From positions 434,001 through 498,000 of the forward strand of contig NW_026515682.1 in NCBI RefSeq assembly GCF_025526975.1: a stretch of 64,000 bases of DNA, written 5' to 3'. The stretch is from Fimicolochytrium jonesii. Its lineage: Eukaryota. A program made the translations under genes and the position numbers. Under the pieces are notes generated by a model, which had not been told where the DNA came from, did no database searches, and worked only from the letters and a program-made list of their open reading frames with translations. Position 1 is the stretch's first letter. Each line of letters opens with the position of its first letter. Below, one piece after another: positions 1,847-64,000 of the stretch.

Positions 1847-2638
1847 GTTGTTCGTATGGAGTATCTATTGTAGACGAGATGGATCAGACTTATTAAAGCC
1901 TGCGCAACGCTCACGTGATGAAACCCACGTGATGGAACGCTTTCTCGGACGCTCTTTTGGCCACCTGTACCGTACAGTACACCCTTCTGGTACTACTGTA
2001 ATTGCATTCTGACAACACTGGCGCTTTGGCACAGTTGAATATTGCTCTCCTTGCAGACGTGCAGGTAGCGAGTTCAATTCCCACTCCCAGACAACTTCTT
2101 TGTTCAGATTATGACCCCTGTCGCGCTAGGCGCGGCGTGGTAACTACTGTCGCGCTCGGCGCTTCGTGGGTGTTAACTGAACAGCACAACTACCGTAGGT
2201 ACTATGTATCGCAACAGAAAGCAACCTTACCCACTCTCAAACAGCTCGAGCCACGACCATTTTTCCTCTGCCTCACGGTCCCTTTCGTTTTATTCCTGCT
2301 GAAACGGGTTGTTTATAAACACTCCCTCTCAGACTGCAGATCGAATTCAGTTGCCGTCGCCGTCGTAGTCGCTCTGCATTCTGATCTCATGGACCGTTCC
2401 GCTCTCAACTCCCGCGATCGATGGAGACAGCCCGGAATAGGGGCAGCCTCGCGATTCGCTCTATGAGAGAGCGTGTGTCAGGAGCAGTGGAGATGGCGGA
2501 GACAGTTGTCTCGGAGACAATGATGAACTCACCCTCATGCAAATGCATGATCCTCCTCCTCCCACAACTCGGAGCCCGCTGTCTCGTCGCCACCAGATGT
2601 AGATCCGTATGATGACACGGACTCCGAGTGTGGGACCC

Positions 2639-2913
2639 TGTAACGTCAGAGGAAATGTAGACGATATTGCGCCCTTCTGAGAGGGCTGAGAACAGTGTAT
2701 TGTAGTGAAGAAAAAAGTAAGAGGCTCTTCGCAGCGGCCGCTCGACTGACAGCTTTATATATGGGCTGCCAGTGGGGCTTGCGTGGCTTCAGTGAGGCTT
2801 GGCACCTTATGTAATGTATCACCGAGAGCGCGGGTGGCCAGCCCGGATCTCGGATCAAGTAGAAGTAGAGAGATATAATGTGAAATACATGTGAAGATGA
2901 GATATCCCCGACA
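2639..2913 (-). repeat. LTR of family A (complete, 275 bp)
   Basis: TGTAACGTCAGAGG...ATATCCCCGACA. Near-identical copies lie at 8444-8508 (partial) and 12067-12335. Confidence 0.95.
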
Positions 2914-3274
2914 CCTCCCTCAGATCCTGAGGAGGGCGCCGCATAAATAAGAGGTGAACTACGAGGGATATGTGAAGAAAGGGAGAGCTCATGTTCATTT
3001 TAAAGTGTTGACGCACTTGTTCATTTTATAGTGTTGACGCACTGTGTGATGTGTGTGTTTGAGGCAAAAGCGTCCCTAAGCCGACGTCGTGTGTGATGTG
3101 TGTGTGTAAGGTCGGTTCTTGCGTCGCCGCGCGTGATGTGATGTAGTTTATGTCGCTATTGCCAGCGGTGTGATTGATAGTGAGCAGTTGTTGCGGCGTC
3201 GCGCATGTGATGTGATATGAGATGCTCTATGCTGTTTGTCTCCGTATCCACAAAGATTGTGGGTGAGCTTTTCG

Positions 3275-4587
3275 TTATCGTTTGTAGGCAGGCGTGTAGC
3301 AAAGTGCGGATTTGGGTTCCCAAGTAGGGTCTGGATAACCGAGCCATTTGACTAGAAGATTTCGTACGGCGCGTCGCTCGTCGATGATGTCTTCTACAAC
3401 CCATTCAGGTTGTCCGTGTTCTTCGATTGGTGGAGGAGGCTGTGGAACTGCACGTTGCGGATATTGCTCTTCGCAATGTGGTCGTAAAATATCGACGTGA
3501 AAGATGGGCCAGATGCCGCTGATCTTTGATGGTGATAAATCGAGTTCGTAGGTATCAGGATGTGCTCCCAGTGCGATGATTTTGAATGGTCCGATCCACG
3601 TAGCTGAGTATCGTAGTCCTCTTCGAGCGTCTACTTCTAGGTTGCCAATTCTGTATGCGATTGGCGTTCGACCTTTGTCGTGTTCCCGTGCGAATTGATC
3701 TTGCGATCTCTGAAGGTTTTCGCGTACGATACGGGCGATGTCTTCCTGCCCTTTCTTGAAGAGTTCGATTTCGTTTCGATTTACAGCTCGAAGTTTGAGT
3801 TCTTGTCCTTCGAGAATTGGATTCCAACCCGGGAGGATTGGAGAGCGTCCGAGATCTACTTCGAATGGCGATAAACCTTCATATTCCCCCTCGGAGCGGT
3901 ATTGTATGCGAATTTGATTAAAGGCAATAGTTTCTTCCAATTGCTTTTGTCGTAGTTGAGGTATTGCTTCCAAATCCTTTTCAGGGTTTGGATGGCTCGC
4001 TCAACTTTGCCGTCAGTTTGCTGATGACAAGCCGTAGCAAGTTTGTGTTTTACACCGAGGAGAATATCGAATGCGAGGAAGAAGTCGGAACGTGCGCAAG
4101 GTTCGCGATCCGTAACAAAGACTTTTGGCGTACCGACATGTTTCCAAACATGATCTAGAAAGACTTGGGCTAGTTTGCGTCCAGTAATCGTCTTCTTAAT
4201 CGGTGTCAGAATCACATGTCCGGAAAGATAATCAATGCAGACAAGACAAGAGTTTGTTTCATCTACTTCGAAAATGTTGAATCCGACCGTGTGCCATCTT
4301 CCAAAAGGTATAGGAAGAGGTCAGAGAAATTCGTATCGACGATGACCAGGTTTGAATTGTCGACAGGATTAGCAAGTTCCAACGTATTTGATGACGTCGG
4401 AGCGTACGGTAGGCCAGTAATAGTCCGTAAGAATTCTTGCGAGAGTCTTCTTAACATTGAGATGTCCTCCGGTGGCGAGTTCGACATGGAATTTCCGCAA
4501 AATCTTTGGGCAAATGTCTTCAGGAACGTATAGACGTCCTTCGTGTCGTACTAATCCATTTTCGAACGTATAACGGAGTTCTTTCAA
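3275..4587 (-). pseudogene. Integrase plus C-terminal chromodomain of retroelement A, broken by frameshifts and stops
   Basis: GGHLNVKKT..YYWP..DV..YVGTC zinc-binding region, VTDRE core, HQQTDGKVER, WIGPFKI (GPF/Y), chromodomain EWVVEDIIDER..LVKWLGYPDPTWEP. The domain is split over three ORFs. Confidence 0.93.
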
Positions 4588-4608
4588 AGTTTTCTCGTGT
4601 TGGGGATT

Positions 4609-6360
4609 TCAAGAAATTTCATCGAGATAATCCGAATATGGATCTTCGCGTAGCGCTTTTTTCCATACTTCTTCTGAGCAAGTAGGTGAGTTTTGTGGAT
4701 CGTCTGTCGTAGCGTTGGAGGAAGGTTCGTTGACAAGCATACTGCTGATCTGCGTATGCATGTCGAGGCGTCGTTGACAATCTACACACCGAGGCGCATA
4801 GATTGGATTGCGGGAGAGCATGTCGGCGATATGATTCCATTGTCCAGGTAAATACTGGATGTCAAAATCATACTCTTGTAGCTTCTCCACCCAATTGGCT
4901 TGTCTTCTGCTCAAATGTGGTTGCGTTTGGATGAATTCGAGTCCCTTGTGATCGCTAAAACATTGAAAGTAACGACCGATGAGATATGGTCGCTTGGCGA
5001 CCAACATCTTGACAAGAGCTAAGAGCTCCTGTTCGTGCGTAGGATATTGAGTTTCTGCGTCCTTCATCTTTCTAGAGAAGAAGACAACAGGCCGGAGCCG
5101 GGGTAACTTCTTCCATTGTCCGACAAGCGTAGGCAGATTTGTAGGGATCGTTTCATTGCCAGAAGGTTGTCCAATCCAGCGAGCGATAGCGTAGCCTGAT
5201 GAGTCAGTATAGACGTAAATTGGCTTGGTTTCATCGATTGTTGCTAGGGTAGGCGCATTGATCAACGCTTCTTTCAACTTTTGAAATGCCTCTTGTTGCT
5301 CAGGACCCCATCGAAATTTGACTTTCAAAGATTGAATACTTGATAGGGGCAGAGCGATGTCCGAATAACCTTGTACGAAGTCGAGGAAATAGTTTGTGAA
5401 CCCGAGAAAGCTTTGAAATCCTTTTGTTGACTTTGGAGTAGCCCAATCTTTGATAGCTTGGATTTTCGAGGGCGCGATGCGAACACCATGTCTTCCAACA
5501 ATATGTCCACACCATTCGAGTTCTTGTTTAGCCCATACGCACTTTGAAGGATTGATGAAAAGGGCGTGTTCTTCAAGTTTCTTCAGGATACGATCGACGT
5601 GTTCCCGATGTTCGGCTAAGGTCTTCGAGAAAATAAAAATGTCGTCCAGGTAAGTAGCGAGAAATTCATGGTAATCTTTATGGAAGATCTTATTCATAAG
5701 ACGTTGAAATGAAGCAGGTGCGTTGGTAAGCCCGAACGGCATGACCAAATACTCAAAATGTCCGAAGCTAGTTTGTATTGCTGTTTTTTCTTGATCTTGT
5801 TTTCGTATAAGAAGACGATGGTATGCTTCTCGAATATCGATAAGCGTAAACCATTTACAACCTTGAATTCGATCCCTCATCTCACGAATATTGGGTAAAG
5901 GAGTGCGATCTTTCTTGGTGACGGCGTTGAGACCTCGGTAGTCCCAACAGATGCGTAATCCGCCATCTTTCTTTTTCGCAAAGACGACACTAGCTCCCCA
6001 GGGACTTGAGGAGTGTTGTATCCATCCTTTTCCGAGCATCGAGGTGATTTGTTTCTTAAGTTCAGCGAGTTCTTCTTTGTTCATGTGCCGAAGAGGTTGC
6101 CAAACGGGTTCAGCACCTTCAGTGAGTTCGATCTTGAAATTATCTTCTCCGCGATCAGGGGGTAGACCTTCCTGTTCCTTGAAAAGCGTATTGACGTATT
6201 TATTTAGGATATCCTTAAGATGTCCTGGATTTCCTTTAAGCTCTTGAGGAGCGTCCGGTATTTTGTTAAGAGCAAGGCAACAGACCATGTCTTTTTCAAA
6301 CTTGTTCCGTTGCCAAGCCTTATTGAATCCCTTGGAAGTCATTTCTATGATGAAGGGCAT
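4609..6360 (-). CDS. Reverse transcriptase-RNase H of retroelement A
   Basis: KKDGGLRICWDYRGLN, VMPFGLTNAPASFQ, YLDD, YTDSSG, HEQELLAL, SDHKGL. Confidence 0.96.
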   Translation of the reverse strand: MPFIIEMTSKGFNKAWQRNKFEKDMVCCLALNKIPDAPQELKGNPGHLKDILNKYVNTLFKEQEGLPPDRGEDNFKIELTEGAEPVWQPLRHMNKEELAELKKQITSMLGKGWIQHSSSPWGASVVFAKKKDGGLRICWDYRGLNAVTKKDRTPLPNIREMRDRIQGCKWFTLIDIREAYHRLLIRKQDQEKTAIQTSFGHFEYLVMPFGLTNAPASFQRLMNKIFHKDYHEFLATYLDDIFIFSKTLAEHREHVDRILKKLEEHALFINPSKCVWAKQELEWCGHIVGRHGVRIAPSKIQAIKDWATPKSTKGFQSFLGFTNYFLDFVQGYSDIALPLSSIQSLKVKFRWGPEQQEAFQKLKEALINAPTLATIDETKPIYVYTDSSGYAIARWIGQPSGNETIPTNLPTLVGQWKKLPRLRPVVFFSRKMKDAETQYPTHEQELLALVKMLVAKRPYLIGRYFQCFSDHKGLEFIQTQPHLSRRQANWVEKLQEYDFDIQYLPGQWNHIADMLSRNPIYAPRCVDCQRRLDMHTQISSMLVNEPSSNATTDDPQNSPTCSEEVWKKALREDPYSDYLDEIS

Positions 6361-7011
6361 TGGCTTGAGCGAATCGAGATACGTAATGAGGTGCGGCTTG
6401 TAGAGGACGAGTATCCACAGGTTTAATGATCCGAACAGGTCGAACGGGTCTTTTGTCTATGACTGGATCTTGTTGCACATTGAAGTAAGGGTTGTTGTGT
6501 TTCGGGATGTATTCGACGTCTTCCTAGTTTCTTGAAGTTCTTTTGCACTTGATGGTGACAGACTGCGGTGCGTTTGGTATAGGGCCGTAATTGGTCCAGC
6601 AAAGGATAGGTAAGGTACTCATCGAGATTTGTTCATCGTAATTAAAGAAACGCCAGAAAGGCATTCCAATAATAGCGTCGTAAGCCAGATTACTGACTAG
6701 CCAGGGAAGTTGTCCAACTAAGAAAAGCAACTGAGATTCGAGACTTTTCTGAAACGACCGTGTCGAGAAGCATGTATGATTCTTTGTCGGCCAGCCATAT
6801 CTGCTTCGGTTCGATACGTTCCTTGGGAAATTTGTGCTTTTCAACGAATGTCTTATCAAGGAATAACCCAGTTGCACCGCTATCAAAAAGAACACGAGCA
6901 AACTTGTTTCCGATGCGACAATGAGAGACCCAGAGTCCAGCAGACAGTGGTTCGAAGACGGTTTATCGGTAGGATCGTATGTTGTAGGCCGAGCAGGGCT
7001 ACCGAGGGGCT

Positions 7012-8349
7012 CTATCGACCTTCAAAAAAACACGAAGATTGATTTGTAGTAGTATTCGTAGTATTCGCAGAGTTGACGGCGTCATCGAGAATTTCCGTAA
7101 TGCGTGACCCAGCATCAACCTGATTGGCTGAACCTTGTTGTTGATTAGGTTGGCGACTGCGCTGCGGAGTTTGAGCGCCACAACCGCGCTGTCGAAAACC
7201 ACCGCGTCGGTTCTGGATTTGCGAGCCTTGCTGTCGATTTTCGGGATTTGACCAGCATTCAACTCTCCAAAGTCCCATTTTATTACAAAGGGGACAAGGA
7301 GTCGTTGGACGTTGACGAGGAACGTGCGTAGTTTGCCATTGTCCACATCGACAAAAGGGCTGTTGACGTTGGTAGGGAACTTGACCTGTAGTGAGACAAC
7401 TCACTCCAGTGGGATAGTATGACGTACCGAGGGCATTGAGCCCAAAGGTCATATCATCTAAGTCTTGCTCGAATTCCGTAATTCGAGGATTGGTGTACGG
7501 GGCAAATCGTCCGCCACGACCACCGCCACGACTACCCCAACCGCGACTGGCTCCACGGCCGCCACAAGCACTGGTTGCCGAGGCAACCGGACGAGGTGTA
7601 TTGGCTTGGTTGCCATCAGTGAACCCATGAGCCACATGAGCACGACGGGCTGCAGTGATAGCTTGATCGAGAGTGATAGGGGTGTTGATGTTGGTAGTCT
7701 GCGAGACTTTGAAGTTCGTAGCGGCTTCAACGAGATAATGACCGATTACCGTATTCTTGAGAAGACCGGCCTTGAAGTATCAAATCTGATCGATAAGGGG
7801 AATGGTGCCTTGACTGTTATCGAGACGATGAGCGGCTTCGAGCTCATTATTGGTGTCTTGAAACTCCTTGAGATATTTCTCGAGAGAGTCACCGAGCTTG
7901 AGGCGGGAGAGCTTGAGCTCAATAGTATTACGCGAGTTGCGAGGATAAAAGTGAGCGACAAGAGCCGTTTGAAAAGCTGTCCAACTCGCGGGAGCGCCAG
8001 TAGCGTAGGTCATATTGTACCACTTGAGAGCAGTACCCTTGAGGTAGGTAGTGAGTGTAGGAGCGTACTCTGCCATAGTAAAGGCTATGGCGTTCGCAGC
8101 TCCAGTACCGTCTGGTCCAGCTTGTACAGCCAGGACCGTGAGACACTCGAGCAAATTGCTGTGAGACGTAACAAACTCTTCGATCTTCTTGGCAGCTTTG
8201 GCGCCATCGTATTCGACGAGCTTGTTCTTGCAAGCGTCCATAAGAAGTTTGAAACGTTTGGCTCGTTGGACGTCCTGCGTAACAGCACGGTCCCAAGTAG
8301 CGAAAGCAGCTGCGACAGCCGCAACGATAGCTTGAGTTTGTTGGTCCAT
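7012..8349 (-). pseudogene. Gag of retroelement A (capsid plus Cys/His knuckle region), interrupted by stops
   Basis: LKGTALKWY...SWTAFQTALVAHF retrotransposon Gag motif, an RGG-rich segment and a CPLC...C knuckle. It lies between the PBS and pol. Confidence 0.85.
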
Positions 8350-8508
8350 TCTTGCTTGTGAACGAGTGTACGGGCGACGTCCGGTAGAGGGGCGACATTG
8401 ACAAGGAATGCCTTGGTGATTCTAGCGGTAGGTGGTGCTACCATGTAACGTCCGAGGAACCGTAGACGATATTGGGCCCTTCTGAGAGGGCTGAGAGCAG
8501 TGTATTGT

Positions 8509-10474
8509 CCTGGTCAGGTTGGAGGAGAACTGCGCCGAGAGCAAAGTCGGAGGCGTCAGTTTCGACGACGAATGGCTTCTCTGGGTCAGGGTGAGCAAGG
8601 ATGGGGGCGGTGGTGAATGATTTCTTCAGGTTCTCAAAGGCGGTGTTTGCAGCGGGCGTCCAGGCGTACGGGATGTCTTTCCGGGTCAGGGCTGTGAGCG
8701 GGGTAGCGATCTTGGAATAACCTTGGATGAATCGGCAATAGAAGTTGGCAAAGCCGAGGAAGCGCTGGACGCCTTTGACATTCTTGGGAGGTTCCCAATC
8801 CGTGATGGCAGCGATCTTCTTGAAGTCCATCTGGATGCCTTTCTCGGAGATGATGAAGGCTAGGAACTCGACAGATTCGCGGTCAAATTCGCACTTCTCG
8901 GGTTTGGCGTACAACCCATGCTGGCGGAGGCGGGACAAGACTTCGCGGACGTGCTTGGGGTGATCTTCGGGGTTCTTGGAGAATATCAGGATATCATCAA
9001 GGTAGACAACAACAAACACATCGAGAATGTCGCGGAAGATGTCGTTCATCAGGTACTGGAAAACACCAGGAGCATTGCTGAGTCCAAAGGGCATGACATT
9101 GTATTCGAATAGGCCGTAGCGGCAGCGGAAGGCGGTCTTCCATTCATCGCCCGGGCGCATGCGTAAGAGGTTGTAAGCGCCGCGGAGGTCGATCTTGGTG
9201 AGACGGCGGGCACCGCGCAAACGGTCCATGATACCGTTGATCAGGGGCAGGGGGTAGCGATTCTTCACCGTGATGCTGTTCAGGCCTCGATAATCGACGC
9301 AGAGGCGGAGAGAACTGTCCTTTTTCTTCACGAATAAGACTGGCGCACCGGCAGGGGACTTTGAGGGTTTGATGAATCCTTTGGCGAGGTTTTCTTCGAG
9401 GTATTCCCAGAGTGCTTTCATTTCTGGTTCGCTGAGGCTGTAGATCGGGCCGAAAGGTGGCTGCTTGCCTTCTTCCAGATCGATTGGACAGTCGTAGGGC
9501 CGGTGCTCGGGGAGAGTGTCAGCATTTTTCTTTTCGAAAACGTCGGCGAAATCTTGATATTCGGGGGGCAGGAAGTCTTTGATGTTTTTCTCGGGTGTCG
9601 GGGGGTTACTGGGGCTAGGCAAGACCGGGAGCTCGGGTTTCGCAGGGTTGGCGTAGGCGACAAAGACCTGGTCATGCCTTGCAGCGACCCGGAAGGCTGG
9701 GGTGGAGATGAACGAGACTCGGAGCGGCATGGGAGCCGGTTCTGGGGTGCTGGAGCGAGATACCTTGGGTACTGGAATTGACCATGTTTTGTCGACGGGG
9801 ACTTCATCCTGGGGGATGCGGATCAAGGGCTCGGGGGTTCTGGCAGGTGCTGGGCTCGGGGGTGCCAGGGAGTGGTCCCAATTCGTGAGTTCATGGTCCT
9901 GACAGTTGCAATGGAAACCGACCGAAAGGTTCTTGAAGTCAAGGTTAATGTCATGGAGGCGGAGCCAGGGAAGACCAAGGAGGATTGGCGCGTGAGGTGA
10001 TTTGGTGACATGGAAGACGAGTTCTTCGAAGTGGTCGTCGACCCACATGCCTACTGGTTAGGTGTGATGGGTGATTGGCCCAGCAGAGCTGGGTTGACCG
10101 TCAACGAGTTCGATCGTCAGGGGACGCTGATGGGGGACTAGGGGGATGCGGTGTTTGCGGGCAAAGTCTCTGTCGATGAAGCAGGACAGGGCCCCGTTGT
10201 CGATCATGGCTGAGGTAGGTATTGGGGCGCAGCTGGATGATACCATGATGGTATCGTGGTAGTTGAAGGGTTCGACGGGACCCAGCACAAGCAGGGTGCG
10301 TGGGTTAATTTCGGAGTTTTCGACATGGGTGGCGGCTAGGAGGGTTGTGTTGGCTATAACGGAGTCGGGAACCGGGGGGGTGGCCTCTTCCGTTGCAGGA
10401 GCTGCGAGGTTAGGAGGCCCAGAGGAGTGTGTGTAGTCCAGTCGCTGGGGCTTTACTGCGGCTGGACCTTGGGA
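8509..10474 (-). pseudogene. Pol (protease-RT-partial RNase H) of element B, -1 frame relative to gag, with an in-frame stop at 10058-10060
   Basis: Protease AMIDNGA...ILLGLPWL; RT KKDSSLRLCVDYRGLN, MPFGLSNAP, YLDD; RNase H start ETDASDFALGAVL. Confidence 0.93.
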
Positions 10475-11460
10475 AAACCCTGTTCCGTGGAGGTTTCTTT
10501 GATGTCGACGTTGGCGGCACGGGTGGTGGTCTTGTTCTTGGCTGGGCAGGCCTTTGCAATGTGCCCCGCCCCACCGCAGTAGAGGCAGAGGTTGTTGGAA
10601 ATGCGGCGTTGGCGTTCCTGGGGGCTCAGAGGGCCGCGGGGACGAGCGGCGTCAATCTGCATGGGCTCGCTGTGGTCGACGGTGGTGGTAGTGGTAAACG
10701 AGGTATGGGGGACTGGGAAGGTCTGGCGGGTTCTGTTTTGTTCCAGGTGGCGCTCAAACAGTCGGTTATCGCACTGGATAGCCTGCTCCATCACCGTATC
10801 AATGGTGGCAGCAGGAGGCATTGTGAGCATCAGATCCTTCACGTCCTCTTTGAGGCCACGGCGGAAGGTAGCAATCAGGGCCTGGTCATTCCAGGAGACA
10901 TCGCATTGTAGCTGGCGGAACTCGGCGATGTACTCGGTGGCTGCACGGGTTTGGCGAAGGTTCTGGAGCTTGTTCTCAGAGGTGCGGACCCTGTCGCTGT
11001 CCCTGAAGACAGATTGCATCTGACCGATAAAACTATCGAAGTTCTGAAGGCTGTGATCTTGGCGTTCGACTAGGGGCGCCATCCAGGCTTGCGCAGTGCC
11101 GGTGAGGTAGGTGCCAATCGTTTGGATCTTGATGATGTCGCTGGGGTAGCGGTCGGGCTGGAGAGCAAACATCAACCGGATGTTGTTCAACCACCCACGG
11201 AATTTGCTGCAGGTACCATCAAACTTCTCAGGCGAGCTGATTCTTGGCTCCAGAGCTCCGGGAGCAGGGTTGGGGACTTGAGGACGGGTGTACGTATTGG
11301 CTTGGACCTGGGCGGCAATGTTCTGGGCAGCTTGTGCGTTGGCTTGGGCTTGCGCTAGGTTGGCCTGCAAGTTGGCGTTTTGGCTTTGCAAGGCGGCAAT
11401 GGCTTGGCACATATCAGTCCATTGCTCGGCGGTGAAAGGTACGGATTCGGATTGGGACAT
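10453..11460 (-). CDS. Gag of element B (PEG10/RTL1-like capsid with CCHC zinc knuckle)
   Basis: SPEKFDG..FRGW, LTGTAQAW, EPMQID, CLYCGGAGHIAKAC. Likely ATG at 11460 (MSQSES). Confidence 0.93.
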   Translation of the reverse strand: MSQSESVPFTAEQWTDMCQAIAALQSQNANLQANLAQAQANAQAAQNIAAQVQANTYTRPQVPNPAPGALEPRISSPEKFDGTCSKFRGWLNNIRLMFALQPDRYPSDIIKIQTIGTYLTGTAQAWMAPLVERQDHSLQNFDSFIGQMQSVFRDSDRVRTSENKLQNLRQTRAATEYIAEFRQLQCDVSWNDQALIATFRRGLKEDVKDLMLTMPPAATIDTVMEQAIQCDNRLFERHLEQNRTRQTFPVPHTSFTTTTTVDHSEPMQIDAARPRGPLSPQERQRRISNNLCLYCGGAGHIAKACPAKNKTTTRAANVDIKETSTEQGFPKVQPQ

Positions 11461-11528
11461 GGCGAAAAGGTGTGGCAGATGCAGGGTTGGACAGGTTCTG
11501 AACTTCGCAGTGTTGGAGCGGATCAAAC

Positions 11529-12066
11529 TGTTATGATCTCGACGACTGAGGCGGAAGCGAAGTAGAGAAGACAAGGCGAGAGCGATGGGCGACAAGAGAT
11601 TGTATTGGCGAAACAAGAGACAAGGACTAGAACAAGAGATGAGAAGAACTGGTGTTGATCTGCTGGGGAGGAAGGGAATGGACGAAGAGAGGCCGGCTAT
11701 TTATAGATAGGCAACCCAGCAGGCCAGAGAACAACAACAACAAGAGAGGACTGGGGGGGCGCCAGCTATGCTCCTAGAGCGTGCGTGGCGAGCGTAGAGA
11801 GCATTGCTACAGCTGCTGGCTATGGAGAAGTAGTGGGGGATGTGGAGAAGCCGAGGGGGGATTGGCGAAATGAGAGGAGAGAGGAGGAGTGGCAATATTG
11901 CGGGAGGATTGGCAAAATGAGAGGAGAGAGGGGGAGTGGCATTGACATTGACATTGACACTGACATTGACACTGACATTGACATTGACATTGGCGTTTGA
12001 CATTGGCGGTTGACATTGGCGGCTGTCAATAGGTAAGCTTATGGTATGGGCGCGTCGTCCATAACA
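11529..12066 (-). repeat. LTR of family B (538 bp) with internal tandem repeats
   Basis: 6-bp inverted termini TGTTAT/ATAACA. Minus-strand TATAAAT at 11699-11705. Contains a duplicated ~42-bp unit and a (GACATT)n hexamer array at about 11940-12020. Confidence 0.85.
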
Positions 12067-12335
12067 GTCAGAGGAGACGTAGACGATATTGGGCCCTTCT
12101 GAGAGGGCTGAAAGCAGTGTATTGTAGCGAAGAAAAAAGTAAGAAGCTCTTTGCAGCGGCCGCTCGACTGACAGCTTTATATATGGGCTGCCAGTGGGGC
12201 TTGCGTGGCTTCAGTGAGGCTTGGCGCCTTATGTAATGTATCACCGAGAGCTCGGGTGGCCAGCCCGGGTCTCAGATCAAGTAGAAGTAGGGAGATATAA
12301 TATGAAATACAAGTGAAGATGAGATATCCCCAACA
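12067..12335 (-). repeat. Family-A LTR copy into which element B inserted (first 6 bp missing)
   Basis: Aligns with 2645-2913 and ends in CA at 12335. Confidence 0.93.
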
Positions 12336-13222
12336 GAGGCTGCTCTCCACCGACGTATACTCCTCGTCATCATCATCAGCGTCGTCGGAGGCGGGGGTAA
12401 AAGCCCGCACTTCCTCGGCCTTCTGCTTTGCAGCGGCCAGGCGCGCTCGGTGTGCGTCAAAGAGGGGCGTGGTGTGGGCCTTCATCGCCTGGCGTGTTGT
12501 TGAACCGCATGTCTCCCTCACTAGCTTAACGCCCTCCAGTGCCCCTCCTCCTCTTCAGGCATGGCCAGCTCCTCCTGCGCCATCTCGTCATACCCCTCCT
12601 CCTCCTTGTGACCGGTCGTCGGGGTGGGCGCTGCTGCTGCTGCTGCTGCGGCTGCGACCCCTGCTATGGCGGCAGCGCGGGTGGGGCGGGTGGGGATGGG
12701 GGCAGGGTTGAGAAGGGCGGAGATTGGGATGGGGTTGGGGATTAGGGCGGGGTTGAGGAGGCTGGTGATTGCAAAGGGGTTGGGGATAGGGGCGGTGGGA
12801 GCGGCAGCGGCGACGGGAGGCTGGGGGGCGGAGACAGGGGGAGCGGCGGCAGAGACGGGGGACTGGGCGGTGGAGACGGGGGTTGGGATGGTGGAGACGG
12901 GGGGATGGTGGGCGGAGACGAGGGGCTGGCGGGTGAGGTGCGTGGTGGCTGGGGCGGGTGCGGGGAGGGTGGTTGAGGGGACGACGGGTTTGCCCGGGAG
13001 GGCAGCGATGGCGTCCAGATATGCCTGCGCGCGCCCACACTTATTGCAGGCTGCCCTGGCTGTGTTGACGTTGTTCACAATGCCCGTTCGCCACGCAGCG
13101 GACGTCCGAGCCCCGCAAACAACGCAGACTCCTCCAGGAGTAAGGCAGGAGTAGTTTCGGTCGTCCCTACCCCTGCCTGCTCCAGCACCAGATTGAGTTC
13201 GGCGTGGGGGTGCTTTGGGCAT
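12336..13222 (-). pseudogene. GATA-like zinc-finger protein with a Pro/Ala-rich repeat region; 3' part frameshifted and interrupted by the LTR
   Basis: CVVCGARTSAAWRTG...ACNKCG (C-X2-C-X22-C-X2-C with T..WR). ATG at 13222. An acidic tail continues in another frame up to the LTR at 12335. Confidence 0.6.
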
Positions 13223-13602: not shown

Positions 13603-14140
13603 CTACTCCTCATTGTCGTTCTCGCCAACCTCGTTCCCATTCTGGCTCCCACCATCATCATCATCATCCGCCGCAGGCTCCTGACCTTGAAACTGTGCAA
13701 GGTCTAAGTAGGATTGACAGTCATACATACACCTGAGTCGTTGTCCTCTAAGAGCAATGGTAAAATTCCTCATGACTTCTCTCATCCACCCTTTTACCGT
13801 CTGCGCTGAAATGCAATCCAGCCCTTCATGAATAAGATGGGGAAGGATGTCCTGAGTAGCTCAAATTTCGTGACAACGAATGAAGGGCTTGACGCTGCCA
13901 AAAACCCATTCTGCGCAGTTGAAAAATGGGGTATAAGAGGGGAGCATTTTCAGCGTATGGCCCGCATCTTGGATAATATCCTTGATAACACGTCGACGGT
14001 CGATGGGTGCATTGTCCATAATAAGAACTTGGTTGGCTTCGTCGATTCTAGGGATGACATCGTCTCGCAAGAATGACTCGAAGACCGCTGCTGTTGTCGT
14101 CGTGGCCATGTTCAAGCGAGATGCGAGAACACCGTGATTT
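13603..14140 (-). pseudogene. Tc1/IS630-family (DD34E, DDE_3) transposase C-terminal remnant
   Basis: GVLA...TTTAAVFESFL...LIMDNAPID...GHTLKMLPSYTPFFNCAEWVFGSVK, with 34 residues between D and E. In-frame TGA at 13861-13863, then ...TVKGWMREV. The N-terminal HTH and first Asp are missing. Confidence 0.88.
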
Positions 14141-15142
14141 CTTGCCACTTGCTTCTCTTTCATGCGGGCCATTGCCTCTGCCTTTCCGCTGGCCAGCTCT
14201 CTTGCGGCTAACGCCTTTTCGCCCTTCCTTCAAGCTTTCTCCGCCACAGCCCTTATCGTCGCTATTTCCTTCTCTCGCAGTCGCTGGGCCTTCAACGCCG
14301 AGAGACGGTTTCTCTCCGCCTCCATCTCCTCCGGGGTGCGACAATCTGTAGTCTGAGAGGGAGTGTTGTAAACAACCAGTTTCAACCACAACTTCCTTTT
14401 AATAGTTACCGTACCCCTCCCCCTTTTCTTCTCTGCAGATAGAGAGATGGTTGTGTGTGTGTGCAGACCATCCGATCGAATGTCTATAAAACGAGTGGTA
14501 TGTGTGAAGGGGAATAAAGTACCGAGTTCCACAACAGGGTCTTCGGAAAGGTGTGCCGAATAGCTTGCATTCTCTGCACTGCCAAAGGCGCTTCCTTCTC
14601 AAAAAAAAAGTCCCGCAATCACCTGCAACACCTGTACATGTACACACACCAGGAAGCTACCTTTACACGCGTGTAAAAAACGTGGGGATCCTCACTCCCA
14701 ATTACATACCACCCTTCCTTCCTACCAACCTTCCTTCCCAACCCCCTTCCTTCCCAACGCAATTGTGAGCAGTAAGCATCCCCGGTTTCACCTTCAACCG
14801 CCACCAGGTAACAACCGCAATTCCTCACCATTCTCAGCCTCATTACCACAGCACTGACGTGAGTTCCTTGACACACAGCTGTCACGGCAATCACCACCCG
14901 TCTCGGCTGACTTAAGGCACAGCACGGCCATCATGCCATCACACCAGGCGCTCCAGAGGCACCTGTGGTGTGGCATCTTTACCGGAGCTACCACACCACG
15001 GCGGTAGAGGAGGAAGGTTGCTCCGGTTACCCCGCGGTTGCCCATACGTCTGCCAACCGCTGTGCAGACACCATTGCAACCACCCCCGCGATTCGAGTTC
15101 CCACCTTCTGTCCATCGCCACTTGCCCCAAGCAATTGCAGAC

Positions 15143-17951
15143 ATGGTTAGCGAGAGTTCCGGCGCTGAAGACGGGCAGCAGCAGCAGCAACAGCAGCGAG
15201 GGCTTTCACCCGGGGACAGGGGTCTGCAGCGTCGGTTGAACCTCCCCGCTCCCATCCCTTTCCTTTTTTCCAGCACACCGGGTGGATCCCTGGTGTATGA
15301 ACCCCCGCCACCACCACCACCAATTCAACGACCCCGCCTGCAAACACATGCCAGCACCAAGGTTTCGCTTCACCGAGTCATCCATAATCAGAATCAAGCT
15401 CAAAGGGAGCGCCTGACAACGTTCATCGGCAATGTTCACGTCCTTGCGCGCCACACCACCTTCTTTCTCAAGTACTACCTTGGTGAGTTTTTGAGGTACA
15501 CTGTATATTTCCCATAGTATTTCCCATAACAATGTCCTGACTACTACGTCTGCCCACCGCAGCTGATCAACCTCTACGCAATTTCCCGGACATCACTGAC
15601 AAGCACATCAGTGTGATGTTTGAGCCGCTCAACAATCCAGGCTACAACGGCAATCCAGTCATTGCGCAAGAGTTGCATCCATGGGTTCAAGACTACTGAG
15701 ATGTTCACGGATTCGCCCCCATCTGCATGCGCCAACAGACCGCAGCGAACAGGGCTTAGAGCATCTTCACAAACCTCAAAGTTAACGTACAAGAGCATTT
15801 CATGCAAATGTTTCTGCGCTACGTCAATGAAAGGCTTGGTTTGAACCAAGTCATACTGCATCTCCGTAGAGCTGGAGTCAATCAAGCGCAGCGGCGACAC
15901 TATTATCAGCGTGTCCGTCAGTTTAAAAAGTATGCGACGTTTGAAGAGTTTCCAACCAAAGAAGATTTTGCGCGCCTCACACGACTTGAGCGGACCGTCC
16001 TCGACAAGATATGGGCTCTGTTTCCTCCCCAGGATGAACCGCTTGCGTACAGCCTTGCGGTGGACGCAATGCCATATTTAGGTGAGTTAGTATATTTCGG
16101 GCCCCCCCCGCTTCCTCTTTTGTCTAATCATGGTCCGCACCTGCCTCGCCTCATCACAGGTGCCTATTGTGAGCTCTCACGCCTCTATGAGCACCGTGGA
16201 ATGTGGCTGTTTTCCGCTATCCCGCTGCGCAAATCTCGAATACAGTCATCTGTTCGGATCGACACAAAGATCCTAACCACTCATATCCTGGCCTTGGGCC
16301 ACCATCGCATGGGGAAACTCACCGATCAACGCAAGCGGGAGCTGTGGGGGCAGTTTCTTAACGTGAATGTAAGTCTCTATCCCTCTGCGCTTATTACACT
16401 CACCTCACCTCGCTGAATGACGGATTGCAGGACAAGGTCTTCAAGCATCGAAAGAAGGTTGGTCTCAAATTTGATGGGTCAATCAGCACAAACGGGTATT
16501 CCGCTACCATCCACTTCAAGAAGCCAGGGCTCAAGTACGGCCATCGCGCCCGGAAGCGCAGCAAAGCCCAGATGCAGGAAGAAGTCAAGCAGCTGTATTT
16601 TGAGCACCACATCGCCGAACTACGGCAGGCTCCAAACATCGTCAGCATTGATCCGGGCAAGCGTAACCTCTTGTTCTGTCGAGACATCAAGAAGGAGCGG
16701 CCATTTCGGTACGTTTCAGTTGATTACTACTGCCCTGCTGTCCCCGCTACCCCCCCCCCCCCCCCGTCTCCGCCCCCAGCCCCCCGTCTCCGCCCCCCAG
16801 CCCCCCGTCTCCGCCCGCCAGCCCCCCGTCTCCACCCGCCAGCCCCCTGTCTCCGCCCGCCAGCCCCCCGTCTCCGCCCACCATCCCCCCGTCTCCGCCC
16901 GCCAGCCCCCCGTCTCCGCCCGCCAGCCTCCCGTCTCCGCCCGCCAGCCCCCCGTCTCCGTTCACCATCCCCCCGTCTCCGCCCACCATCCCCCTGTCTC
17001 CGCTGCCGCTCCCACCGCCCCTATCCCCACCATCCCCATTGCGGCAACATTCTGTTGCAGCGTTCTCAGAATGCACCACCCCATACCAGATACACATCCA
17101 ATCAACGGGCGGTCAAGACAAAGTCTCGGTACTTTCAAAGAGACATGAGCGAGCGAAAGATCAATGCCGGCATCGCTGAGATGGAATCACATATTCCATC
17201 GCACAAGAGCATGAACATCGAGGCGTTCTCAGCTTTCATCGTGGATCACATACATGCAGGTATGATGTATTATGCGCTGTCTTCAAATTTAGTAATACAT
17301 GGGCTGACATCCATCCATATCCCAGATCCCGCCCTGGATGAGTTTTACCAGGATTGAGATTCACGTCGCTCGCAGGTTCAAGGCGTTCTCACTGCGGCAA
17401 AAGTCTGAGAGCAAGCTCATTAAGAACATGCGACGCCGGTATGGAAAGAATTTTTCGGTCATCTTGGGTGATTGGAGCGATGCTGGTAAACAATGCGCTT
17501 TCAGGAGTCATCGAAGACCAAGGGGTGAGTGACCATGATTGGTGGTATCTACTATGTATTCTATTATGCTAACTCATCATGGAACAGATTCCGCACACTC
17601 TTTGCGAGAAACGGCATTCCATGCTACTTGCTGGATGAGTATCGAACGTCGTCCGTGTGCCCCGACTGCCACGGCCGTGTGAAGAAAAACATCCGACAGC
17701 GGCTGTCATCTCGGCCATGGCAAGCTAGAAAGGGAAGAATGGAATACGTCCATGGATTGGTGGGTTGCCCCAACCCCGAATGTATCAACCAAGACTGGAC
17801 ACCATTTGAGATTCCTGGAAGACGACCACTACGACTACGGATGAGAGTGCACAATCGGGACGTCCTGAGCACCAAGAATTTCCTCTCGATTGTGCGTTCG
17901 GTGGTGTTTGGCAATGGCCGCAGACCAGACGCATTCTCCCGTAACCGGTAG
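15143..17951 (+). pseudogene. Fanzor1 (TnpB-like RNA-guided endonuclease) copy 1, seven exons, about 692 codons spliced, inactivated
   Basis: GT-AG introns at 15483-15562, 16082-16159, 16369-16430, 16709-17089, 17260-17325 and 17525-17587. The spliced protein has FDGSISTNGYS, RuvC-I VSIDPG, FRYTSNQR, GDWS, KGFRTLF...LLDEYRTS (RuvC-II), CPDC...VHGL.GCPNPEC and RuvC-III NRD. Stops at 15697 and 15757; compensating +1/-1 indels at about 17355 and 17490 relative to copy 2. The start codon is uncertain. Confidence 0.93.
16763..17003 (+). repeat. 21-bp GC-rich minisatellite (about 12 units, CCCGTCTCCGCCCGCCAGCCC) inside Fanzor intron 4
   Basis: Visible tandem array; the orthologous intron of copy 2 has about 5 units. 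Confidence 0.9.
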
Positions 17952-18046
17952 TCTAGATTTCACCCCATCCCATTTTCCGTGGTGGTTATCTGCCATCCAC
18001 ATCATTGTACCTCTGCCTGAGGCGTCGCCGATGAAGGCAACTTGTA
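17952..18046 (+). ncRNA. Putative Fanzor omegaRNA scaffold / element right end (copy 1); putative guide begins at about 18047
   Basis: Identical to the copy 2 segment up to ...AAGGCAACTTGTA, after which the copies diverge. Two hairpins: GTGG-TGGT..GCCA-T-CCAC and TGCCT..GGC-GTC-GCC..AGGCA. Confidence 0.78.
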
Positions 18047-19031
18047 GAAACGAAAGGGTGAACCGCGGACGCGTTGGTTGCGGCGACACTCGTCTGAGCC
18101 CGAGGAGGTTGCTTTGATCAATGATCATAGCCAGCTCCCGTGCGAAGCCATTGCCTTGATGTGCTTGGTAAGGGATCTGCACATGTGAGCCCATACATGG
18201 TGTGGGGCCTGTGTACATGTACCCTCAGTAGCTCGGTTGACTCGCTGCTCTCGGTGTGTGGGCTTTCAGCGCGACGACGTGCTTAGGTATGATTGGTACG
18301 CAGTGGTCCCGGTTTCATACCTCCGCTGGATATAGCATTGATTGAGTGCATGACTTGCCTGCTGGTTCATGTGCATTGATCGCTGCACAGGCAAACAGCC
18401 TTGTCTAGAAGCTACATCCTTTGCCTTGTCTTCTCTGCCGAGTGCGATGTGTGATATCCTTGTGAAAACCTTGTTGGGCCCACTGGTGTGCACGAGACTA
18501 AATCGTTTTCCGCAATATACCAACACAATGTACAGTACGCATCCAGCGCCTACTCCATACAACGCTGTAAGGTATGTACTGTATGTATATACCTCCCAGC
18601 AGTCGAGCTGTCCCATGTCCAGATCGAGGAGCCACCGTTGCGAACGCGTTTCCATTCGGGCTTGCTCTGACTTGCTCTGGGAAGTTGGGTTGTTGGCGCT
18701 GAGAGTCGGAGACCCCGGCAGTGAGCAAGGCCCCACTTCTTGCAAACAAACGGTCAGCTAGTGAACGCACTTGCAAATGTAGTGGGTAGTACTTATAATA
18801 GCACCCCGCCTCTTCGCCGCCAAGTCCCCTCTAGCACTCCCTATTGTGGAGAACTTAACCCGCCAGCCGCTCCCACGTGCGCGATCATCCACCTCTCGCA
18901 AAATACTACGGCGCTTCGAAGATCGAGTGCGTTCAGAATAGGCTGCCACTTAAGGATAAAACCAGCTCAGAAGCATAGAGAGACTTTGGAAGAATCTGTT
19001 CTGGGCATAACGCCGTTACAGACTCGAGAAA

Positions 19032-61829: not shown

Positions 61830-61875
61830 GGAGTTGGCCTGGGAGTTGGCCTGGGAGTTGGCCTGGGAGTTGGCC
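61830..61875. repeat. 12-bp tandem repeat (GGGAGTTGGCCT, about 3.8 copies) in the flank of Fanzor copy 2
   Basis: Directly visible. Confidence 0.9.
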
Positions 61876-61888
61876 GTGGGATCTGGGA

Positions 61889-61983
61889 TACAAGTTGCCT
61901 TCATCGGCGACGCCTCAGGCAGAGGTACAATGATGTGGATGGCAGATAACCACCACGGAAAATGGGATGGGGTGAAATCTAGA
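61889..61983 (-). ncRNA. Putative Fanzor omegaRNA scaffold / element right end (copy 2); putative guide runs from 61888 downward
   Basis: Reverse complement is identical to 17952-18046. Confidence 0.78.
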
Positions 61984-64000
61984 CTACCGGTTACGGGAGA
62001 ATGCGTCTGGTCTGTGGCCATCGCCAAACACCACCAAACGCACAATCAAGAGAAAATACTTGGTGCTTAGGACATCCTGATTGTGCACTTTCATCCGTAG
62101 TGGTCGTCTTCCAGGAATCCCAAATGGCGTCCAGTCTTGGTTGATACATTCGGGGTTGGGGCAAACCACCAATCCATGGACGTATTCCATTCTTCCCTTT
62201 CTAGCTTGCCACGGCCGAGACAACAGCCGACGTCGGATGTTTTTCTTCACACGGCCGTGGCAGTCAGGGCACACGGACGACGTTCGATACTCATCCAGCA
62301 AGTAGCATGGAATGCCGTTTCTCGCAAAGAGTGTGCGGAATCTGTTCCATGATGAGTTAGCATAATAGAATACATAGTAGATACCACCAATCTTGGTCAC
62401 TCACCCCTTGGTCTTCGATGACTCCTGAAAGCGCATTGTTTTCCCGGCATCGCTCCAATCACCCAAGATGACCGAAAAATGCTTTCCATACCGGCGTCGC
62501 ATGTTCTTAATGACCTTGCTCTCAGACTTTTGCCGCAGTGAGAACGCCTTGAATCTGCGAGCTACGTGAATCTCATCCTGGTAAAACTCATCCAGGGCGG
62601 GATCTGGGATATTGATGGATGTCAGCCCATGTATTACCAAATTTGAAAATCAAAGTTGAAGTTGAACATCATACCCGCATGTTCGTAACCCACAATGAAC
62701 GCTGAGAACGCCTTGATGTTCATGCTCTTGTGCGATGGAATATGTGATTCCATCTCAGCGATGCCGGCATTGATCTTTTGCTCTCTCATGTCTCTTTGAA
62801 AGTACTGAGACTTTGTCTCGACCGCCCGTTGATTGGATGCGTATCTGGTATGGGGTGGTGCATTGTGAGAACGCTGCAACGGAATGTCGCCGCAACGGGG
62901 ATGGTGGGGATAGGGGCGGTGGGAGCTGCAGCAAGAGACGGGGGGATGGTGGGCGGAGACGGGGGGCTGGCGGGCGGAGACTGGGGGCTGGCGGGCAGAG
63001 ACGGGGGGCTGGCGGGCGGAGACGGGGGGGGGGGGGGGGAGGTAGCGGGGACAGCAGTGCAGTAGTAATCAACTGAAACGTACCGAAATGGCCGCTCCTT
63101 CTTGATGTCTTGACAGAACAAGAGGTCACGCTTGCCCGGATCAATGCTGACGATGTTTGGAGCCTCCCTTAGTTCGGCGATGTGGTGCTCAAAATACAGC
63201 TGTTAGACTTCTTCCTGCATTTGGGCTTTGCTGCGCTTCCGGGCGCGATGGCCGTACTTGAGCCCTGGCTTCTTGAAGTGGATGGTAGCGGAATACCCGT
63301 TTGTGCTGATTGACCCATCAAATTTGAGACCAAGCTTCTTTCGATGCTTGCAGACCTTGTCCTAAAATCCGTCATTCAGCAAGGTAATCAGATTGAATCA
63401 AGCACAGAAGGGTACAGACTTAACTTACATTCACATTGAGAAACTGCCCCCGCATCTCCTGCTTGCGTTCATCGGTGAATTTCCCCATGCGATGGTGGCC
63501 CAAGGCCAGGATATGAGTGGTTAGGATCTTTGTGTCGATCCGAACAGATGACTGGATTCGAGATTTGCGCAGCGGGATAGCGAAAAACAGCCGCATTCCA
63601 AGGCGCTCATAGAGGCGTGAGAGCTCACAATAGGCACCTGTGATGATGCAGGTGCGGACTATGATTAGACAAAAGAGGAAGCAGCGGGGGGGGGGGGGGG
63701 GGCGTAAATATACAGGATGTAACTCACCTAAATATGGCATTACGTCCACCGCAAGGCTGTACGCAAGCGCTTCATCCTGGGGAGGAAACAGAGCCCATAA
63801 CTTGTCGAGGACGGTCCGCTCAAGTCGTGTGAGGTGCGCAAACTCTTCTTGGGTTGGAAACTCTTCAAACGTCGCAAATTTTGTAAAGTGACGGACCCGC
63901 TGATAATAGTGTTGCCGCTGCGCTCGGTTGACTCCAGCTCTAAGGGGATGCAGTGCGACTTGCTTCAAACCAAGCCTTTCGTTGACGTAGCGCAGAAACA
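61984..64000 (-). pseudogene. Fanzor1 copy 2 (5' part beyond the window), inactivated
   Basis: Same exon structure as copy 1 (introns 63638-63727, 63362-63428, 62845-63083, 62604-62674, 62342-62404). Motifs SIDPG, DEYRTS and NQD are present. In-frame TAA at about 63203-63205 where copy 1 has AAG. Confidence 0.93.

Follow-up and report, generated by a model that had tools for sequence, protein, structure and literature searches.

A predicted omegaRNA scaffold at the identical right ends of two disrupted Fanzor1 genes in Fimicolochytrium jonesii

Two dead genes in the chytrid Fimicolochytrium jonesii end in exactly the same sequence, and the question is what this end encodes and whether it is still used. 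The stretch of DNA analysed here, 64,000 nucleotides in length and called the window, contains two copies of a Fanzor1 gene. Direct comparison of the two shows that 17921–18046 equals the reverse complement of 61889–62014 at 126 of 126 positions, while 11 amino-acid substitutions and a gap of 2 residues separate the last exons. These are the observations from which a sequence-only reading of the locus had started, and its 126-nt identity ending at TA, the flanks it quoted after TA, its estimate of about 11 substitutions with a 2-codon indel and its placing of TTTTCCG at 17973 all agree with our comparison. Identity, boundary, gene family, lesions and stem-loop 1 with its motif are observed directly. 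With good confidence, we regard the identical sequence as the right terminus of a Fanzor1 transposon that has introns and many copies. The omegaRNA scaffold is likely encoded by its last 75 nt, and the guide by the next approximately 15 bases of flanking DNA. Fanzor proteins of F. jonesii have already been catalogued (Yoon 2023), and we found no published RNA for this Fanzor1 family in the literature.

The assignment to Fanzor1 is based on the protein sequence, and its match to Fanzor1 proteins of solved structure is decisive. The last exon matches SpuFz1 of Spizellomyces punctatus with an E value of 1.4e-29 and the full-length homolog P0028 with 4.6e-149. The motifs of the RuvC triad (the Asp of DPG, the Glu just before the C4 zinc finger and the C-terminal Asp) are present in copy 1 and in P0028, and both window copies are disrupted outside these motifs. 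The F. jonesii annotation includes at least 31 homologous proteins, and in a tree of 24 rows the F. jonesii copies group together at 100/100, without a resolved sister group. P0028, an F. jonesii gene model of 761 amino acids, covers the gene from end to end and retains D497, E656 and D731. Since a full-length protein with all three catalytic residues is annotated, it is plausible, as the sequence-only reading had suggested, that the window loci supply guides in trans to an intact Fanzor.

Table 1. Coordinates of the features in the window
Feature	Position	Strand	Basis or remark
Fanzor1 pseudogene, copy 1, seven exons	14933..17951	+	stops at 15005, 15697, 15757; frameshift near 17354
Exons of copy 1	14933-15482, 15563-16081, 16160-16368, 16431-16708, 17090-17259, 17326-17524, 17588-17951	+	
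Fanzor1 pseudogene, copy 2, cut by window edge	61984..64000	-	stop at 63205, upstream of first catalytic Asp
Last Fanzor codons with stop (17921-17951) and 20-nt spacer, outside predicted scaffold	17921..17971	+	same in both copies
Predicted omegaRNA scaffold, copy 1, 75 nt ending in TA	17972..18046	+	SpuFz1 length, UCC start, loop motif; 3' boundary from copies and contigs
Predicted omegaRNA scaffold, copy 2	61889..61963	-	identical to copy 1
Stem-loop 1: 7 base pairs, one bulged U, 7-nt loop	17979..18000	+	pair probabilities 0.95-0.99, z -3.46
Predicted stem 2, closing on terminal TA	18006..18046	+	four basal pairs possible in SpuFz1 register
Predicted 15-nt guide, copy 1 (flanking DNA)	18047..18061	+	between-copy identity ends at 18046; length by SpuFz1 analogy
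Predicted guide, copy 2	61874..61888	-	first 11 nt (12/15) match Fanzor intron 5/exon 6 junction
Copy 1 site matched by copy 2 guide, preceded by CATA	17316..17334	+	sequence match
C-terminal half of a dead Tc1/mariner-type DDE_3 transposase, with internal stop, oriented divergently from Fanzor	13603..14148	-	Pfam DDE_3 E 2.4e-12
C4 zinc-finger-like gene, main part	12336..13222	-	21-nt minisatellite in common with Fanzor intron 4
Last 33 codons of the same zinc-finger-like gene	2538..2636	-	tblastn residues 289-321, 94% identity

The 3' boundary can be followed beyond the two window copies. Among 11 soil-metagenome contigs from runs X2 and X4 of two studies, four reach the element end. All four diverge at 18046 or 18047 and continue into different flanks, so that a conserved non-coding region between the Fanzor stop and the element end, followed by a variable flank, is present in both window copies and in 4/4 contigs. 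The six junctions all end in TA, and none of them comes from an element with both ends. X2 record 8 has only 18008–18046 in common with copy 1 and differs in the interior. It looks like the left terminal repeat of another copy, and judged by this sequence 18008–18046 likely doubles as the right terminal inverted repeat. The exact 26-nt end pattern gave no match in the JGI metagenomes. Repeated searches of the window did not find the left terminal repeat of copy 1; the best local candidate at about 2251–2281 has the wrong orientation and is near chance (14 of 300 shuffles), and a 16-nt piece of the left-end-like X2 contig is without a close match in the window. The left end of copy 2 falls beyond the window edge. 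Target duplication and TAM are therefore not readable at copy 1, and TA may be the target duplication by analogy with SPu-1, the matching left TA being unseen. The earlier proposal of a Fanzor right end with a scaffold ending at TA and a guide from the flank is supported, its end now checked in the contigs. The suggestion that the loci are still mobilisable is unsupported, given the missing left repeat of copy 1 and the dead DDE gene beside it.

An intact DDE transposase is absent at copy 1, where only the stop-containing C-terminal fragment is found. Between this fragment and the Fanzor gene, the X2 contigs have a junction at 14536/14537. One of the 3 matches to the fragment is an F. jonesii homolog, with 64% identity, on a contig that differs in length from those of the listed Fanzor copies. 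The fragment, which adjoins the Fanzor gene, is a putative part of the element. The neighbouring zinc-finger-like gene is split by a Ty3/Gypsy insertion at about 2639–12335 with gag and RT domains, and the best family match of its protein is a weak DUF7351. This gene is likely cargo, which would make copy 1 part of a larger composite element.

Folding supports the predicted scaffold in its first half. The sequence-only reading had described two hairpins, of which the first (17972–18005) is indeed more stable than its shuffles (z -3.46, 1/200), whereas the 126 nt as a whole are not (z -0.28) and for the 3' half several folds compete (z -0.85). A stem 2 as in SpuFz1 has -13.9 kcal/mol (-17.4 when drawn without one G-U pair) compared to -21.9 for the minimum-energy fold; pairing in the SpuFz1 register is possible, yet another fold is the predicted minimum. 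The RNA coordinates predicted earlier lie within 2 nt of 17972–18061 and 61963–61874 as given here. In a comparison by eye with seven published RNAs of fungal Fanzor1, stem-loop 1 shows the UCC start, the 7 pairs and the GUURUC loop layout. These seven RNAs from Spizellomyces and Parasitella have UCC, a 6-pair stem and then GUURUCGC, and 7 is the pair number reported as constant for stem-loop 1 (Xu 2024, PMC11423790). By the same comparison, three of the seven pairs are changed on both sides relative to SpuFz1 (no. 16) and six of the seven relative to Parasitella no. 58, with pairing kept in each case. X2 record 5 and X4 record 11 both have the stem-loop unbroken. Its loop has one U more than the published fungal Fanzor1 RNAs, directly before the G which in SpuFz1 pairs with C6 and touches the active site. 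This extra U could impair activity. Rfam gave no match in 17800–18200. Scans for related loci (alignment A3) yielded 7 metagenome loci, 1 genome locus and no viral locus, with a usable 3' end only in L001 and L002, which are the same sequence and were misaligned at that end by MAFFT. This more distant Fanzor1 has a U-rich UCC start, a shorter and different stem-loop without folding signal and no terminal repeat at its 3' end.

The closest described system is SPu-1 with SpuFz1 (Bao and Jurka 2013, PMC3627910; Saito 2023, PMC10432273; PDB 8GKH). Both have a Fanzor1 protein (P0003 is 46% identical to S. punctatus P0039 in the best segment) and a 75-nt scaffold, here a predicted one, reaching from N-UUUUCC to the terminal TA with a 7-pair stem-loop 1 and GUURUC loop. 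Similar to SPu-1, the variable flank would act as guide, and many of the many copies are dead. In contrast to the single ORF of SpuFz1, the gene here has six introns and about 110 more N-terminal residues, and two of the six TAM-contacting residues (R96 and N133) are not kept, as counted on alignments. The RNA differs by the extra loop U, a bulged stem U and an unrelated stem 2 sequence. The terminal repeat is possibly 39–46 nt instead of 30–33 nt, and a likely larger composite with the zinc-finger-like gene replaces the 2.1-kb single-gene element. PpFz1 of Parasitella parasitica (Xu 2024, PMC11423790; PDB 9CF0) shares the UCC start, the 7-pair stem-loop 1 and a GUUAUC loop, and has a short basal stem 2 like the one predicted here, but its protein is much more distant (E 2.4e-37), and its RNA is shorter with a different stem sequence. 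TA ends with a DDE sequence nearby are also found in known TA-ended systems with a DDE transposase near Fanzor; here, the transposase is a dead fragment and the left terminal repeat was not found. CrFNuc of Chlamydomonas reinhardtii (Jiang 2023, PMC10530073) is likewise an intron-bearing Fanzor1 with a 3' RNA conserved between copies. It bound RNA, with no cleavage detected in vitro, and differs from the present family in its Helitron2 association and its RNA.

For transcription, loading, TAM, cutting, homing and target duplication we infer the following course. Transcription would begin near 17972 and continue into the flank, and the RNA would form stem-loop 1 and a stem 2 that closes on the terminal TA. 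In SpuFz1, stem-loop 1 is held by the RuvC and zinc-finger domains. Because both window genes are dead, only an intact copy could provide the protein, in trans. Cutting by the complex would be directed at a TA-ending TAM followed by the flank sequence, which is the empty site after excision, and it would promote copying of the element back in, as in the published model of restorative homing. The end is likely more uniform than the gene because of its double role as terminal repeat and RNA scaffold, and copies with intact ends would be propagated whatever the condition of their gene. In S. punctatus, loci lacking the protein are expressed and encode working scaffolds.

How far does the identity itself argue for present use? 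Within the 126 nt, 17921–17951 are Fanzor codons (31 nt, stop at 17949–51) and 17952–17971 are spacer, so that only 75 of the 126 nt are predicted scaffold. A second identical run of 126 nt (17537–17662) and one of 112 nt (16459–16570) lie inside the gene. Under uniformly placed differences, a terminal run of at least 126 has p 1.5e-4 and two such runs have p 2.5e-4; the internal runs break that null too, and it was discarded. With the observed patchiness as null, 2 of 131 intervals reach 126, about 0.015. The copies differ at 0/75 scaffold positions compared to 80/1500 exon positions (p 0.018), and in metagenome contigs of the same runs at 8/349 end positions compared to 27/598 in the gene body (p 0.055). 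The stronger constraint on the end proposed by the sequence-only reading has modest support, given the internal identical run of equal length. These internal runs, the 51 nt of identity beyond the scaffold and the borderline contig p value would also fit a patchwork element with a relic scaffold, in which recent recombination or gene conversion produced the identity and no RNA is made or used from either locus, as would the death of both window genes. We consider this a real but minority possibility. It is opposed by the independent soil contigs, where ends are more alike than bodies (2.3% compared to 4.5–6.8% difference, p 0.055 to 6e-4, from non-independent rows and trimmed alignments), and by the expressed, functional S. 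punctatus loci without protein. It also grants the scaffold its identity and disputes its present use alone. A reading in which the end is conserved only as a DNA-level terminal inverted repeat bound by a Tc1/mariner transposase, with the upstream hairpin incidental, is improbable. In its favour, X2 record 8 looks like a left terminal repeat, elements of the Tc1/mariner type typically end in TA, and a DDE_3 remnant adjoins the Fanzor gene. Stem-loop 1, however, lies outside 18008–18046, and yet the fungal Fanzor1 RNA motif is kept there with compensatory changes and stays unbroken in the two contig records named above.

Beyond the omegaRNA scaffold, the predicted guide of copy 2 matches the family's own gene over the 11 nt after TA. 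The 13-mer of TA and these 11 nt is found only at the two genes and at the copy 2 end, none of 100 shuffles gives such matches, and an equally good match to the element follows only 2 of the 3915 other TA sites in the window. For the copy 1 guide, the best TA-adjacent match to the element is 4 nt. The copy 1 site follows CATA; the equivalent site of copy 2, whose match starts at 62609 on the minus strand, follows AATA. Conceivably, dead copy 2 supplies a trans guide with which an intact Fanzor binds, nicks or weakly cuts the intron 5/exon 6 junction of siblings with a suitable TAM (CATA). The family would be damped or homogenised in this way and copy 2, having AATA, spared, all within a composite Fanzor1 element with zinc-finger cargo. 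We hold this to be unlikely. The match was noticed post hoc in one of four guides examined, the other three matching 3–4 nt, and its first six letters are already present in the C-rich 12-nt tandem repeat that forms the flank. With guides of 10 nt SpuFz1 has hardly any activity, and its plateau is reached near 13 nt. CATA is the TAM of SpuFz1 and may not be that of the F. jonesii family, and the same trace, without function, could stem from a nested insertion into an older copy.

For a chytrid Fanzor1 family known so far by its proteins, the right end described here provides a scaffold and a guide boundary that can be tested. It adds a third genus to the covariation of stem-loop 1, and the natural one-base insertion in the loop probes the role of the RNA at the active site. 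Since the family combines many copies and dead guide donors with a member that appears intact, F. jonesii is a good place to study the native role of Fanzor. Should the self-matching guide prove functional, it would be a natural case of a eukaryotic OMEGA guide directed at its own transposon family, restraining or reshuffling it, and a way for such a family to regulate itself.

Two Fanzor1 pseudogenes, copy 1 on the plus strand and copy 2 on the minus strand, end in 126 nt without a single mismatch (17921-18046 and the reverse complement of 61889-62014), and their sequences diverge immediately past the TA. The sequence-only reading had described this identity together with a last exon in which 11 amino acids differ and two are missing from one copy; both descriptions are borne out, and the identical end is a real, correctly recognised feature. 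Since the copy 1 stop codon lies at 17949-17951, the run divides into 31 nt of codons, then 20 nt of spacer, then the 75 nt assigned to the scaffold of the predicted omegaRNA, the guide RNA of the Fanzor nuclease. From 15809 to the end, the copies differ by 115 substitutions in 2083 columns, and identity is also unbroken over two stretches inside the gene, 17537-17662 (126 nt) and 16459-16570 (112 nt). Small parts of the element are present in four public soil or straw metagenome runs. Among 11 contigs on 17050-18500, all four that reach the end stop at 18046 or 18047 (runs X2 and X4) and continue into unlike sequence, which supports the TA boundary proposed earlier. One of these four (X2 record 8) shares only 18008-18046, with a different interior that does not contain the stem-loop 1 motif. 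Judged by its sequence, it may be a left terminal repeat read backwards, a pattern that fits the statement in Yoon 2023 (PMC10711439) that both the terminal repeat and the target duplication belong to Fanzor1 scaffolds.

In the PDB, the last exon has a match to SpuFz1, the Fanzor1 protein of Spizellomyces punctatus, at E 1.4e-29. A protein search with part of exon 2 retrieved 19 proteins from 180 candidates, all from Fimicolochytrium jonesii and 18 of them with 77-93% identity; cluster look-ups brought the F. jonesii homologs to 31 and later to 34. Copy 1 is interrupted by stop codons at 15005, 15697 and 15757 and shifts frame near 17354; in copy 2, which extends past the window edge, a stop codon lies at 63205. 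P0028, an annotated F. jonesii homolog (761 aa, gene model only), spans the whole gene, aligns with SpuFz1 at E 4.6e-149 and keeps D497, E656 and D731. Counted on printed alignments, the SpuFz1 residues that contact its target-adjacent motif (TAM) are kept in P0028 at Q129, Q130, R291 and Y345 and not at R96 and N133; CATA cannot be taken for granted as TAM. The N-terminus (14933-15300) is about 110 residues longer than in SpuFz1 and proline-rich, and by eye a basic stretch within it resembles a nuclear localisation signal. A Fanzor1-like gene with 48% identity to the query (L008:1900-3276) sits on a Bacteroidota MAG contig of 3.3 kb; it is probably eukaryotic DNA that was binned with this MAG.

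The SPu-1 element was described by Bao and Jurka 2013 (PMC3627910), Fanzors with introns were reported by Jiang 2023 (PMC10530073), and Table S2 of Yoon 2023 lists F. jonesii proteins among its HMM hits, naming the genus 33 times. F. jonesii proteins are absent from the searchable supplements of Saito 2023 and Jiang 2023, and PMC12247965, in the portion available, names Fanzor in its reference list only. At the level of titles and abstract openings, outside subscription journals and bioRxiv supplements, we found no description of the element's RNA or cargo gene, nor of a natural self-matching Fanzor guide.

Saito 2023 (PMC10432273) gives the SpuFz1 scaffold as 75 nt ending in TA, followed by a guide of 14-15 nt. 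The window element is alike, with exactly 75 nt from the base preceding TTTTCCG through the TA. Scaffold positions 8-29 form seven base pairs (pair probabilities 0.95-0.99), and folding of the first 34 nt beats 199 of 200 shuffles. The seven published Spizellomyces and Parasitella RNAs used for comparison all share UCC, six stem bases, GUURUCGC and six complementary bases, two of them with one bulged G; the predicted window RNA follows this layout, with one bulged U in its stem and one U more in its loop, before the last loop G. The additional loop U is not private to the window copies, as X2 record 5 and X4 record 11 span it gap-free. By eye, both sides have changed in 3 of the 7 stem-loop 1 pairs relative to SpuFz1 no. 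16 and in 6 of the 7 relative to Parasitella no. 58, with pairing kept throughout. The seven pairs are constant and the region beyond is variable according to Xu 2024 (PMC11423790). Counting against the assignment, the 3' half of the scaffold shows no clear fold (z -0.85 against shuffles); the SpuFz1 register U35-A75, G36-U74, U37-G73, A38-U72 is possible and not favoured in isolation. An Rfam search of 17800-18200 gave no match. At L001, a distant intronless Fanzor1 locus from a soil metagenome, the U-rich UCC start is kept soon after the stop, whereas the hairpin is different and shorter; L001:5008-5080 is a candidate omegaRNA of its own.

The end had also been read as more strongly constrained than the gene. 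Between the copies, 0 of 75 scaffold positions and 80 of 1500 exon positions are changed (p 0.018). Against copy 1, metagenome contigs from the same runs carry 8 differences in 349 end positions and 27 in 598 gene positions (p 0.055); once upstream X2 records are added, the gene count becomes 71 in 1044 (p 6e-4). The rows behind these counts are not independent, and the alignments are trimmed. With the differences permuted uniformly, the terminal run has p 1.5e-4, but a pair of runs that long has p 2.5e-4 and three runs of at least 112 arise in 0 of 20000; because this null also fails for the internal runs, divergence is patchy, and 2 of 131 observed intervals reach 126 (about 0.015, our arithmetic). 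Support for stronger constraint on the end is real but modest, and the claim was overstated. The pattern is expected of any family whose copies spread by their ends and does not demonstrate present function at the two loci.

The copy 2 flank, which would supply its guide, matches the intron 5/exon 6 junction of the Fanzor gene over 11 nt (12/15), with CATA before the matched site in copy 1 and AATA before that in copy 2. A functional match is improbable in our judgement; SpuFz1 needs about 13 nt of guide for full activity, and the match is a post hoc observation in a flank that is a C-rich tandem repeat. Alternatively, it arose by chance, or was left by nested insertion into an older copy. The window contains the 13-mer with its TA at three places, and 0 of 100 shuffles contain it; only 2 of 3915 other TA sites in the window match the element equally well, and the three other guides tested match it over 3-4 nt.

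Coordinates of the annotated features
Feature	Position	Strand	Remarks
Fanzor1 gene, copy 1	14933-17951	+	seven exons, GT-AG introns
DDE_3 fragment	13603-14148	-	internal stop, without N-terminal half
C4 zinc-finger-like protein gene	13222-12336, then 2636-2538	-	split by Ty3/Gypsy insertion
21-nt minisatellite	16730-17020, 62900-63050 (intron 4, both copies), 12776-12982 (zinc-finger-like gene)		repeat numbers differ between Fanzor copies
Nested Ty3/Gypsy LTR retrotransposons	2639-12335		LTRs ~2641-2913 and 12062-12335, 94% identical

Searches upstream of copy 1 turned up no inverted counterpart of the right end, and the suggestion that these loci remain mobilisable went too far. Two X2 contigs share a break at 14536|14537 with different continuations on each side, which suggests a deletion in copy 1; the segment 14537-14607 is common to another context. 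For the zinc-finger-like protein there are four other homologs in F. jonesii, two with accessions directly adjacent to those of Fanzor proteins, one eight numbers off and the fourth with no Fanzor neighbour among the accessions listed. The C-rich minisatellite and its 3' tail are common to Fanzor intron 4 and the zinc-finger-like coding region, which suggests that the intron took in a piece of a gene. From the shared minisatellite and from accession adjacency, which points to linkage indirectly, copy 1 likely belongs to a larger composite element that has lost its left end or in which this end can no longer be recognised. The Ty3/Gypsy nest includes a partial LTR (8440-8508) and two RT regions, with a possible degraded 5-bp duplication at its insertion. 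Two inverted copies of a 42-nt sequence (2300-2341 and 14344-14384, 90% identical, the left an imperfect palindrome) lie on either side of the stretch with the zinc-finger-like gene and DDE fragment. No target duplication is evident at them; the sequence may mark a recombination site or the place where a separate element ends. The two right ends face one another across 43.8 kb of host genes (18047-61888), with ORFs that we take to include malate dehydrogenase-like and ornithine decarboxylase-like ones.

The published Fanzor1 model, as outlined in the review PMC13565253, has a guided nuclease act at the empty site so that the element is restored, and it most likely applies here, with transcription, loading, TAM and cutting taken over from that model. 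RNA from the right end and flank would be made and loaded on a Fanzor nuclease supplied in trans; it would direct the nuclease to the empty site left after excision, where repair of the cut would restore the element.
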